Below, one piece after another: positions 16,932 through 20,044 of a DNA stretch of 64,000 bases. This DNA is from Waddliaceae bacterium (GTDB lineage: Bacteria; Chlamydiota; Chlamydiia; Chlamydiales; Waddliaceae). The notes beneath the pieces were generated by a model. The model saw only the letters and a list, made by a program, of their open reading frames with translations. It did no database searches and was not told the origin of the DNA. The first letter of the stretch is position 1. The number at the start of each line of letters is the position of its first letter. Made by a program: the position numbers and the translations under genes. The stretch is taken from assembly GCA_963724325.1 (NCBI GenBank), contig CAVRUH010000007.1, positions 1 through 64,000 on the forward strand, read 5' to 3'.

Positions 16932-17280
16932 CGCATTGTGAGTAATATTAATATTTTAGTCAATTTCATCATAAACATTGGTGTTACCTTTTTTACATTT
17001 AATAATACTAATTATTTTGTAATTTTCATTAAAATTTAAAATTTATATTGCATTAAAATCTATGGCCGCAAAATCGGGTTGGATTTTGGTCGGCGCTCAT
17101 CATGAGACCTTCTCATGAATTATATCCTTATTATATCTAATTCTTGAATTATATGCAAACAAAAAAGTATTTCATGAGGTTTTTGTTCTGCGTTCTACTA
17201 CTAAATCTTAATAAGATTAAATTTTAAGATATTAAAAAATCAAGTAGGTTTGTGGCTTTTGAATCACCATTTTTAGGCTA

Positions 17281-18996
17281 TCAAGCTGCCATTTCTAAGT
17301 CCATGTGCAGTACCTCTTGCGAAGCACCTGTGAACATTTCGGTAATGTTTTGGAGCATTCCTTCCATCTTAATCACTTTTTTTATCTTTGGATTGAGCTT
17401 CTCTAATTTTTCATTATGCTTTTTCAATGCATCACGCACTTTGGCGCCATCGATTTCAGCAAAGCGTTCGGCAAGGGTCTTTTTTCCATTTAGAATTATC
17501 CTTAAATAATCGGTATTGCCTAAATTTTTCACATAGGGCGTCTCCGCAAGCATGGTTTTTAAAATTTTATTCATCGACTTATTGCCCGTTCTCTTTCTGT
17601 GGCCGCGCTTCTCATCGCGGAAGGTTCTTTCTAAGAGGTTGTTTGTTCGCTCCGGAAATATATGGATTTTCACGCCATTTGCATCTGTTACTTCAATTCC
17701 AGCGGTAAACAACTTGTCCTTGTATTTTTCAATTTGCTTAAGCATCTTCCGAACGCAACGATCTGTTTCTGATGCCCTCTTGATATCTTCCCTAGCAGTA
17801 AAGGCAATAAGTTCTTTTTTCATTATTGACATATCTGCATCCTTCCCATCATCATTGAGACCATCTGCACCGTCAAGTGGTGCAATTCTCATGATCTCTC
17901 TCAGATAATCGAAATACTGGATTCTTCTTTTGAGGCTTTGAAGACACTCTTGGAGGTCAGTCGAGCTCAAAACCTCCTCCAAAAATAACTTTATCTTCAG
18001 CAAATGTCCACCTTGAATGTTCAATTTTTGCAGATGTTCATGGACCTTAATCATGCGACCCACGAGAGAAACATTGGAACGATCAAATGGAAAACCATAT
18101 CCATTAAGCTCACTTGTATAATCTTGAATCCACTCTATAAGAAGATGCGCAATAATTTGCTCGGGGAGCTTTTGTTTAAAAAAGAACTCAACACAGACTT
18201 TCAGCGGCCTAGAAAGGATGGGATAATTTCGGATAAGCGCCCGAAATTCTCTCGAGAATTTACTTAAAGTTGGCTTAACCTCAAAGTCGCGAAGTACTGA
18301 GCCAAGAAAGCTGTCATCTTCTTTTAAGAGATCCTTTCCTATATCGCGAAGCCAATGAAAATGACAAATAAATATACGTATGCCGGGGAATACTTCCTCT
18401 ACAGCAGAAATAATTCCCTTACTCATGTCACACACAATACCTGTAGGAGTACCATAAGCAGTTTTAAGGTCCTGAAGAATCGGTACAATCGATTCACAGG
18501 ATTCGCTCGGAATCTTTCGAGATACTAAGATTAATTTCAGCAGTTCTTCAGCAGCGCAAAAAAGATGCGGACTATCGCCGTCGCATGTACTGTCCAGGTG
18601 AACAAAATAGCCTCCATGTAGATTTATAAGGCTTTTAATTTCTGGTTCTTTCTCCCGATGTGCTTGTGCCAAATACATGATGAATTTTTTTCCAAGAACC
18701 GTTACTTCACTCGGCGAAATTTCGACATTCCTCATTTCAAGAAGCGTTGCGATTTCGCTTTCTGTCCTATTTTTGACAAATAATTCCTGTCCTATAAATT
18801 CAATGATGTCGAACCCGAAGTTGGCATATTCAGGAACAAGGGCACTTAATTGTTCGGAGGCAAATGCTTTCTTACAGGGTATACAATATTTATGTTTCTG
18901 TTTAAACCATATTTTTCCAAAGTCAAGAACGACACCCTTTCTTCGCTTAGTCTTCTGAACGTTAAATTTTGCATTGCAATGGGGGCATCTGGACAA
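17281..18996 (-). CDS. DDE transposase catalytic ORF (orfB)
   Basis: CxxC...CxxC zinc ribbon; HLDST (D1), IVCDMS (D2), CHFHW (C/DxxH), RTNNLLERTFR (E). The frame stays open upstream to the A9 run at ~19115-19123. Confidence 0.85.
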   Translation of the reverse strand: MSRCPHCNAKFNVQKTKRRKGVVLDFGKIWFKQKHKYCIPCKKAFASEQLSALVPEYANFGFDIIEFIGQELFVKNRTESEIATLLEMRNVEISPSEVTVLGKKFIMYLAQAHREKEPEIKSLINLHGGYFVHLDSTCDGDSPHLFCAAEELLKLILVSRKIPSESCESIVPILQDLKTAYGTPTGIVCDMSKGIISAVEEVFPGIRIFICHFHWLRDIGKDLLKEDDSFLGSVLRDFEVKPTLSKFSREFRALIRNYPILSRPLKVCVEFFFKQKLPEQIIAHLLIEWIQDYTSELNGYGFPFDRSNVSLVGRMIKVHEHLQKLNIQGGHLLKIKLFLEEVLSSTDLQECLQSLKRRIQYFDYLREIMRIAPLDGADGLNDDGKDADMSIMKKELIAFTAREDIKRASETDRCVRKMLKQIEKYKDKLFTAGIEVTDANGVKIHIFPERTNNLLERTFRDEKRGHRKRTGNKSMNKILKTMLAETPYVKNLGNTDYLRIILNGKKTLAERFAEIDGAKVRDALKKHNEKLEKLNPKIKKVIKMEGMLQNITEMFTGASQEVLHMDLEMAA

Positions 18997-19097
18997 ATTG
19001 GTTTCAGCGGAAAGATAGTGATCTATATTGGTTGGTGTGCGCAGACTATGAACGAAACGCTCAACCTCCGTTATTCGAAGTTCTCTTATCGATTGGA

Positions 19098-19766
19098 TTA
19101 GATTGAATCCTGAGTTTTTTTTTCTAAATCGTAACGACCGAATACTTGCCGGACAACCTCAACTGAAATTTTTGACCCCTCCTTTGACAATGCCGTCGCT
19201 ACCTGTTCTGGGGTGATATTTCCTTTGACCATTTGGTATGTCTTGATGAGAACTCTGAGCGCCGTTGAGTTATCAACAGAATATTCTTCGATGCCTCTTT
19301 TTTCTCGCATATCAAGTTGAGCGCCCGCTTTCTCCGGTTCGACGCTTGTATAAACATAAACTTTTTGTTTTTTCTCTCGAGTTAACTTTTTTTTCTTTAC
19401 AAGATCAATGAGTGCGGCCTTGACGGTCAAACTGCATTCTCGTTGAAGTTCAGCACTAGTCATTCCAGATTCAGACGCATTTACAAGATGGGTAATGGTA
19501 TCTAATAATGTCCCATGTCTTGAGAATCCAATGTCCCCGCAATGCCAAAAACCGTTCTCATCAAATTCGGCAAGCTTACGAAGTGTGTAATATTGCCCCG
19601 CGTGTGAATAGCTGACAAGGTAGTCCAATTCTTTCATATATCGAAGCACCGATCGTTTTGACTTAATGCCAAATGCACGCATAAGATCCGCTATTTGCAA
19701 GATCTGTTTTTCTTCGAAAAGAATTCTGGCAGCCCTAAGTTTTTCTTGTTTTGTTTGTGTACCCAT
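19098..19766 (-). CDS. IS orfA, putative winged-helix DNA-binding protein
   Basis: 222 aa inside the TIRs; basic HTH-like segments; ends LEKKTQDSI across the A9 run. Confidence 0.75.
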   Translation of the reverse strand: MGTQTKQEKLRAARILFEEKQILQIADLMRAFGIKSKRSVLRYMKELDYLVSYSHAGQYYTLRKLAEFDENGFWHCGDIGFSRHGTLLDTITHLVNASESGMTSAELQRECSLTVKAALIDLVKKKKLTREKKQKVYVYTSVEPEKAGAQLDMREKRGIEEYSVDNSTALRVLIKTYQMVKGNITPEQVATALSKEGSKISVEVVRQVFGRYDLEKKTQDSI

Positions 19767-20044
19767 ACGAATGTCCTATTTTTACCTATAATGTCTTAAT
19801 TATACCTTTAATAGGGTATAATTGCGACAAAAATCGTAAAATTTAGGGTTTTTGGTCAAAATTCAGGCCATTAAAAATATTTATGATTGATAAAACGGGG
19901 AAAATTAGGGTAGAACACAAAAAATGAAAAGGAAAAAGGACGCTCAGAATGTATCTAAAGGGCTACAAACAAATCCAACCCGATTTTGCGGCCATAGATT
20001 AAAATATATAGTTTGTTATAATATTAGATTAAAACGGAGGTATT

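Follow-up and report, generated by a model that had tools for sequence, protein, structure and literature searches.

The question raised by this locus is how the transposase of an otherwise intact insertion sequence (IS) is made when its two open reading frames (ORFs) do not share a frame. The window analysed here is a stretch of 64,000 nucleotides (positions 1 to 64,000, forward strand, of contig CAVRUH010000007.1 in GenBank assembly GCA_963724325.1) from a Waddliaceae bacterium with a genome of 2.37 Mb and ~40% GC. The element lies at 17060-19997 on the minus strand (2,938 bp), and its ORFs, orfA and orfB, are out of frame at a run of nine adenines (A9) that is conserved as an A-run in relatives. 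Recoding at this site very probably takes place, and transcriptional slippage is judged to be its probable, by no means certain, form.

The split at the A-run

The 3′ end of orfA reads GAA AAA AAA ACT CAG GAT TCA ATC TAA, and the -1 frame has no stop between 19158 and 17283, where it terminates. Read-through in this frame gives a product of 828 aa, in agreement with the ~830-aa fusion by a -1 shift at A9 that had been proposed from the letters and their translations before any database search (the sequence-only reading). That reading had also assigned orfB a TTG start; the first start codon of orfB is TTG at 18996, three codons ahead of the first Cys, and no Shine-Dalgarno pairing was found there (+0.4 kcal/mol).

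Relatives were collected by a metagenome scan, and the best 80 of the 590 confirmed loci were analysed. OrfA was matched by tblastn in 70 of them and a further 8 hold the OrfA C-terminus by profile, while L026 and L083 were left out of the junction counts because their contigs start downstream of the junction; L010 (internally deleted, A8) and L004 (no orfA) had been left out before the counts. An A-run was present at the end of orfA in all 78 loci spanning the junction, with lengths of A7 (2 loci), A8 (50), A9 (24), A10 (1) and A11 (1), so that 76 of the 78 carry A8 or longer. The shift needed to enter orfB was -1 in 70/78 and +1 in 8/78, and no locus was in frame. In the tblastn-matched loci the run stood just before the orfA stop in 70/70, with orfB at -1 in 64 and at +1 in 6; the profile-matched loci had the run in 8/8, with 6 at -1 and 2 at +1. 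The conservation of run and overlap in homologues, which the sequence-only reading had named as its test, was thus found throughout (run and split each in 78/78), and its -1 shift held for the 70 loci but not as a general rule, 8 relatives needing +1.

The codons at the junction are conserved as well. Lys-Lys was encoded there by AAA AAA in 70/70 scored loci, against 167/457 Lys-Lys pairs elsewhere in the same ORFs, and runs of A8 or more outside the junction numbered 26 in 164 kb of these ORFs. Clustering of the scored loci by protein identity gives 30 groups at 70% and 16 at 60%, their GC ranges from 30 to 56%, and kin among them are not independent. In a separate protein set, Lys-Lys occurred within the last 22 residues of 142/149 unfused OrfA representatives, compared with 32 and 12 in control windows.

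Downstream of the run the shifted frame was stop-free for 40 codons in 70/70 loci, as against 14/70 for the unused third frame. The residues that follow were N in 56/64, G in 53/64 and F/Y in 52/64, with synonymous variation; the consensus from the first codon past the run was N-x-G-F/Y-x-A/L/V-L/I-K/R-x-L, the orfA tail itself being less conserved, and third codon positions varied most (1.65 vs. 1.24 and 1.09 bits, 57 loci). Ahead of the Zn-ribbon Cys, start codons were scattered: no ATG, GTG or TTG was present in 8/66 loci and no ATG in 50/66 (5/71 loci without the CxxC pattern being left out of this count). Judged at the level of sequence, the shifted frame is under selection and the OrfA-OrfB fusion is the likely product. 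A natural fusion of this kind was returned by a full scan with a hidden Markov model, among the best 150 of 2,357 OrfA-like clusters: P0271 (819 aa) has OrfA and OrfB in one frame, joined at EKKKGYNLI at the corresponding junction, and is 37% identical to OrfB over 609 columns. No fused form was returned by a word search with OrfA alone.

Viral contigs gave 6 pattern matches with no relative among them, the GTDB scan gave one locus, which ends before orfA, and a scan of the phylum gave matches in 7/400 genomes, mostly fragments (G005 unscored).

Probable transcriptional slippage and its rivals

Transcriptional slippage is favoured because no conserved stimulator was found and because a +1 lineage exists. 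No conserved hairpin was detected upstream or downstream of the run (mean z 0.01-0.05; 3/71 loci below -2, as in controls), nor was an upstream Shine-Dalgarno stimulator conserved (6/71 vs. 47/284). In a quick tree, from which L067 was left out (internal stop), five +1 loci together with L044 fall on one side of a branch with support 94, and the +1 loci are down to 68% identical to one another. L044 (A9, -1) and L072 (A8, +1) are 93% identical with a single gap in 2,688 nt; L051 (A7, +1), which groups with -1 elements, probably reflects an isolated deletion. No -1 ribosomal shift would bring the +1 lineage into frame, whereas polymerase slippage yields both directions, which argues for transcription. 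Among 1,403 long ORFs of the host, runs of A9 (52 vs. 92.6 ± 5.6 expected, 0.56) and A10 (3 vs. 26.6 expected, 0.11) are scarce. Conserved A8-A10 runs in IS overlaps are treated as transcriptional slippage in the accessible part of PMC1088944, and the arrangement used there (a conserved run of at least eight A in the ORF overlap, with the same layout in non-identical homologues) was found in 76/78 loci here. According to the available sections of PMC6211511, slippage on A9 in IS1447 goes in both directions, and An with n>7 is listed for transcriptional slippage in PMC3711429, by which poly-A may slip in translation, transcription or replication.

Several points count against slippage of the polymerase. 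The branch support of 94 is below the star threshold of the tool (95) and the tree is a quick one; lone +1 or -1 calls, of which the A7 of L051 and L044 are single cases, can be homopolymer errors; A8, which most relatives carry, is below the usual threshold of nine A and is not depleted in host ORFs, and the depletion of A9 there can reflect replication slippage too. In the window copy a weak hairpin lies downstream of the run (-13.6 kcal/mol over 70 nt). An A_AAA_AAN heptamer is present at every -1 junction, and according to PMC4066793 some IS use heptamers of this kind for ribosomal shifting without any stimulator. The fused P0271, finally, is a one-member cluster on one contig, 1/150 of the OrfA relatives listed, and could be an assembly error.

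The heptamer is the basis of the ribosomal explanation, programmed -1 frameshifting on A_AAA_AAN with a +1/-2 ribosomal slip on the Lys codons in the +1 lineage, which we regard as rather unlikely. The 70/78 junctions that need -1 hold the heptamer in the right phase, the AAA AAA of 70/70 loci lies in the orfA frame, and -1 frameshifting is proposed for the ISMich2 p-MULT elements in the available part of PMC3942029. Against it stand the lack of a conserved 3′ hairpin or 5′ Shine-Dalgarno sequence, the rarity of the efficient A_AAA_AAG form (2/72 junctions, L034 and L059), the divergent +1 lineage, and a run length (8-9) conserved beyond phase alone. A switch at the DNA level, in which occasional replication slippage gives an in-frame active copy and the out-of-frame sequence is a stable OFF form, would account for the difference in run length between the close relatives L044 and L072, for P0271, and for the IS892-like copies of Nostoc with A7 (out of frame) or A8 (in frame) near the 5′ end. 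It is nevertheless improbable: 0/78 loci and 1/150 OrfA representatives were in frame, and the two copies in this genome are separate insertions with A9 in both, from which it follows that the out-of-frame form was the form copied.

Two separate proteins, with orfB started from its own TTG, GTG or ATG or by re-initiation and Lys-Lys merely a protein motif, would agree with the ATG, GTG or TTG ahead of the first Cys in 58/66 loci, with relatives of 1.67 kb that function without orfA and start 20-25 aa ahead of that Cys, and with the OrfB homologues examined (120 of 953 proteins), which are all unfused and at most 638 aa. This is very doubtful, since the start codons are scattered on conserved Leu/Val sites and lacking in 8/66, conservation of the frame extends upstream of them, AAG never occurs at the junction and P0271 is fused. 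The least credible account takes the gene to be ordinarily single, with 828 codons, and A9 to be an error of the consensus or a recent deletion that inactivates it. Homopolymers are error-prone, the second genome copy (on contig C3) has another A-run indel, and contigs of 4 sequencing runs leave 18957-19162 uncovered; yet in 78/78 relatives, whose assemblies are unrelated, the split falls at this very site, and A9 is found in both genome copies, which leaves this account next to no probability.

With transcriptional slippage as the preferred reading, RNA polymerase would likely slip on the A-run, so that a fraction of the mRNAs would encode the 828-aa OrfA-OrfB fusion, the predicted active Mutator-type DDE transposase, and unslipped mRNAs would give the 222-aa winged-helix OrfA alone. 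OrfA would likely bind the element ends and limit transposition, a role for and against which the case is evenly balanced. By analogy with IS256, for which circles are reported in the available text of 10.1101/2023.06.07.543989, transposition may follow a circular copy-out/paste-in route, and in the circular form a promoter-like site at the right end would face orfA; in the sequencing runs, whose cover is sparse, no reads were found to join the two ends.

Predicted proteins and family placement

Alignment of 76 OrfB homologues showed D174, D229, C250, H253 and E495 to be invariant and C43 and C77 nearly so. The OrfB model (predicted local distance difference test score, pLDDT, 80.8; predicted template modelling score 0.66) contains a beta/Zn-ribbon region, a helix-turn-helix (HTH), an RNase H-type core and a long helical insert, with D174 and D229 at strand ends and E495 at a helix start. 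Its best solved folds by Foldseek were ISCth4 (E 1.4e-5) and Hermes (E 1.9e-5), with low TM-scores of 0.21-0.24, and against the MULE profile it scored 27.3 bits (cut-off 27.6). OrfB is accordingly modelled as a Mutator-type DDE enzyme, a prediction in line with the Mutator-like transposase of the sequence-only reading. The first CxxC of the Zn ribbon is absent from five relatives (L034, L041, L069, L085 and L086) and may therefore be dispensable.

For OrfA, profile searches gave weak HTH matches only. Its model (pLDDT 91.4) resembles tandem winged-helix proteins in fold search, residues 85-149 being matched to a SelB winged helix (Z 9.2, root-mean-square deviation 1.9, 63 residues) in a search that barely probed the first and last domains. 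OrfA is predicted from the model to consist of tandem winged helices, and the winged HTH that had been read in orfA stands in this sense. The idea of its last domain as a duplicate of the OrfB HTH found no support (hhalign probability 1.7%). P0121 (503 aa, 4 members), in which the two N-terminal winged-helix domains of OrfA are followed by a region with a LuxR-type HTH at its end, is a chimera or a recruited domain; it was rejected as an OrfA-OrfB fusion, having no OrfB match.

The OrfA profile recovered 2,357 clusters (50% identity) at E 0.001 and 760 at 1e-30. Terminal inverted repeats (TIRs) were found in 35 of the 70 loci examined, window copy included, with the family end pattern CTATG-N2/3-CGCAAA-N4/5-GTTGG and element sizes of 2,640-2,940 bp. 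An 8-bp target-site duplication (TSD) flanks L057, L010 and the two genome copies; most metagenome contigs with TIRs lack one, a candidate explanation being collapsed multi-copy flanks. The internally deleted L010 (L010:416-2224, G111; ~1.8 kb) retains both TIRs and the 8-bp TSD and may be a non-autonomous derivative.

The nearest annotated relatives are 1.67-kb elements with CTA(G/T) ends on plasmids of Nostoc PCC 7120, Deinococcus and Microvirga (L095, L110, L113, L096), which we take to be IS892 and its kin. The name IS892 and its host, and nothing further, are confirmed in the available part of PMC4369082; the name was not found in the supplements of PMC3942029 that were searched. The element of Nostoc PCC 7120 (1,675 bp, CTAG ends, 8-bp TSD) occupies 8 places on a plasmid. 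These elements share with the present one a homologous transposase (23-30% identity, profile E 3.9e-29), comparable ends (CTAGCGTGGCAAAA / CTATGACGGCAAAG vs. CTATGGCCGCAAAA here) of the pattern CTA(G/T)N4GC(A/G)AA, an 8-bp TSD (in L095), the order Zn ribbon-HTH-DDE-CxxH and, in several of their copies, frame breaks at A-runs. They differ in size (1,668-1,676 bp in the four sized, vs. 2,640-2,940 bp), in the lack of orfA (the last OrfA domain gives a weak 40-residue match to their internal HTH, E 0.008-0.08), in frame breaks that lie mid-gene or just ahead of the Zn ribbon, and in a spacing from the second Asp to Glu of ~220 aa instead of 266 aa. The Nostoc copies L095:1362-3036 and L110:361-2036 differ in an A7/A8 run just ahead of the Zn ribbon; no in-frame ATG lies upstream of this run, and the annotated start skips the first CxxC.

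The IS66 family, with its TnpA-TnpB-TnpC layout, resembles the element in its size of ~2.7 kb, its 8-bp TSD and an HTH accessory ORF that precedes a Zn-finger-DDE-CxxH enzyme. It differs in its ends and in a TnpB-sized middle ORF, the present element having two ORFs only. No IS66 profile match was obtained for OrfB, three homologues or P0271, and the Nostoc relative reached E 4.9e-10 and 39 bits against a cut-off of 180.

With IS256 and p-MULT1 (ISCth4) the element shares the best structural match (TMq 0.24, 13% identity), the best NCBIfam match (E 4.9e-10), the CxxH motif and the 8-bp TSD. The scores for NF033543, however, were 38.9 and 27.5 bits against a cut-off of 150, the two ORFs with 828 aa compare with one ORF of ~400 aa, the insert is far longer and the ends begin with C instead of G; membership of IS256 was rejected on the cut-off and the two ORFs. 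Of the earlier Mutator/IS256 assignment, the Mutator-like part therefore stood and the IS256 part did not, the 1.67-kb elements being nearest. In the available part of PMC3942029, p-MULT transposases are described with a C/D(2)H motif 11-19 aa after the second Asp, a helical insert of 99-138 aa, direct repeats of 8-9 bp and inverted repeats of 18-39 bp. The RNase H-type DDE triad, the 8-bp repeats and the length of the inverted repeats (27 bp) agree with this, and the invariant C250xxH253 lies 21 aa after D229, narrowly beyond the stated range. The region from D229 to E495 is helical but 266 aa long, and the terminal bases are C...G, against G...C in four rows of the supplement; these two features do not agree. 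The ISMich2 group (p-MULT4) of that source is alike in a Mutator-like transposase, two ORFs and a conserved -1 break; ISNsp5, the one row compared, has 1,166 bp, GGGAG ends and a 9-bp direct repeat, against 2.9 kb and CTATG ends here, and is too short for an orfA of 220 aa followed by an orfB of 600 aa. OrfAB fusion by A-run slippage is likewise shared with IS1447 (IS3 family) and with the A8-A10 IS of PMC1088944, as far as its accessible part goes; IS1447 belongs to another transposase family and has an upstream stem-loop, whereas none is conserved here. An Azospirillum match was rejected as ISAzba1, which is from A. brasilense and has GAGAC ends.

No description of such an organisation was found in a literature search whose scope lay outside ISfinder and subscription reviews. 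From its sequence the element appears to work like a Mutator-type IS, but membership could be shown for none of the families compared, the IS256 and p-MULT definitions leaving it outside. The group is large and could not be assigned to a described family, its novelty being provisional.

Copies, right end and significance

The perfect 27-bp TIRs (27/27 nt at both tips), the 8-bp TSD and the length of 2,938 bp given by the sequence-only reading were all confirmed on the window sequence, and the features are collected in Table 1. The genome holds two full copies. The second (contig C3, 17829-20767) is 99.93% identical to the window copy, with the same ends and the same A9, and is flanked by an 8-bp TSD of its own (AATTATAC). 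The two copies are told apart by a single substitution and by an additional A in the second, at element position 2507, which ends the orfB frame of the C3 copy after 567 codons instead of 625; the early end falls after the third catalytic residue, and the extra A is a mutation or an assembly error. In soil run X2, one contig follows the left end up to 19998 and continues into a third, unrelated flank. The second copy with its own TSD and the third flank fix the ends and indicate that the element was recently mobile, as had been read from its perfect ends.

Table 1. Features of the element and its right-hand neighbour in the window (orfB residues are numbered from 19113).
Feature	Position	Strand	Basis or content
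Target-site duplication, right side, 8 bp, ATTAAAAT on + strand	17052..17059	.	sequence
Right terminal inverted repeat, 27 bp, perfect match to left	17060..17086	-	sequence
Palindrome TCATGAGA-N3-TCTCATGA, just downstream of promoter-like site	17100..17118	-	pattern
Sigma-70-type promoter-like site, TTTGCA-18-TATAAT, outward towards oxidase gene	17130..17159	-	consensus match only
orfB frame	17281..19114	-	linker helix (NSGFNLI...), Zn-ribbon cysteines, HTH, DDE core
DDE core	orfB D174 (18594), D229 (18429), E495 (17631)	-	alignment, model
CxxH motif	orfB C250xxH253 (18366)	-	alignment
Zn-ribbon cysteines	orfB C43 near 18987, C77 near 18885	-	alignment
orfA, 222 aa	19098..19766	-	two predicted winged-helix domains and C-terminal three-helix domain
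A9 run (GAA AAA AAA ACT, Lys-Lys), joining orfA to orfB	19115..19123	-	sequence, relatives
Left terminal inverted repeat, 27 bp	19971..19997	-	sequence
Target-site duplication, left side, 8 bp, ATTAAAAT	19998..20005	.	sequence
FAD-linked oxidase / Fe-S gene, 925 aa, outside the element	14154..16931	-	ORF list, profile match

The promoter-like site in Table 1 lies ~100 bp inside the right tip; a promoter scan gave 17 sites vs. 10.1 ± 3.4 in shuffled sequences, which is weak evidence. The palindrome beside it may be an operator or a 5′ hairpin, judging by its pattern, which has 8 matches in the genome. Five solo right ends (TIR and palindrome without transposase) were located at C7:178785-178889, C7:180852-180959, C5:68155-68257, C1:249288-249388 and C1:597063-597165. 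Four of the five carry a clear outward -35/-10 pair, TTGAC(A/T)-17/18-TA..AT, and in all five a host ORF on the same strand starts 5-91 bp downstream; an ORF start within 100 bp is found in 15.6% of random intergenic windows (crude gene set). Degenerate matches of the unit occur at C1:42439-42525, 46878-46949, 700453-700521, 705884-705954 and 167905-168000, most with promoter and palindrome and without a TIR, and 4/5 of them likewise precede genes. Genes in G199 and G195 likewise have comparable ends ahead of them. The right end of the full C3 copy faces an oppositely oriented gene; among the relatives, a promoter-like site occurs at this distance in L015, and seven others lack the extension. 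The solo right ends are candidate IS-derived promoters of host genes. Because most degenerate matches lack the TIR, the promoter-palindrome unit may instead be a host regulatory module captured by the IS.

Outside the element, a gap of 128 bp separates the right end from the start of the oxidase gene. On the other side, close to the left end, a strong promoter-like site (TTGACA-16-CATAAT, 11/12; 20069-20042, minus strand) reads into orfA and may be the former promoter of the oxidase gene, cut off by the insertion. Two neighbouring ORFs of 362 and 427 aa (20045-22451, plus strand) have no Pfam match above cut-off, the second with a faint DUF1539 match.

Recoded OrfAB fusions are already well known in IS, and the mechanism is not new. 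As a tentative overall account, less likely than not, a large, uncatalogued IS family (2,357 OrfA-like clusters) may have arisen by the addition of a tandem winged-helix module to an IS892-type transposase, using polymerase slippage free of stimulators in either direction by lineage; its chlamydial branch may have acquired a promoter that faces outward under the control of an operator, from which the transposase would be expressed in the circle and which the host may have kept as a solo promoter cassette before at least five of its own genes. The element group is widespread and has no Pfam or NCBIfam model that names it, its two genes being annotated apart and mostly as hypothetical. Because -1 and +1 lineages occur naturally at a single homologous site, the choice between transcriptional and ribosomal slippage is directly testable, and the solo right ends offer a candidate case of an IS end left as a host-gene promoter in an environmental chlamydia-like bacterium.

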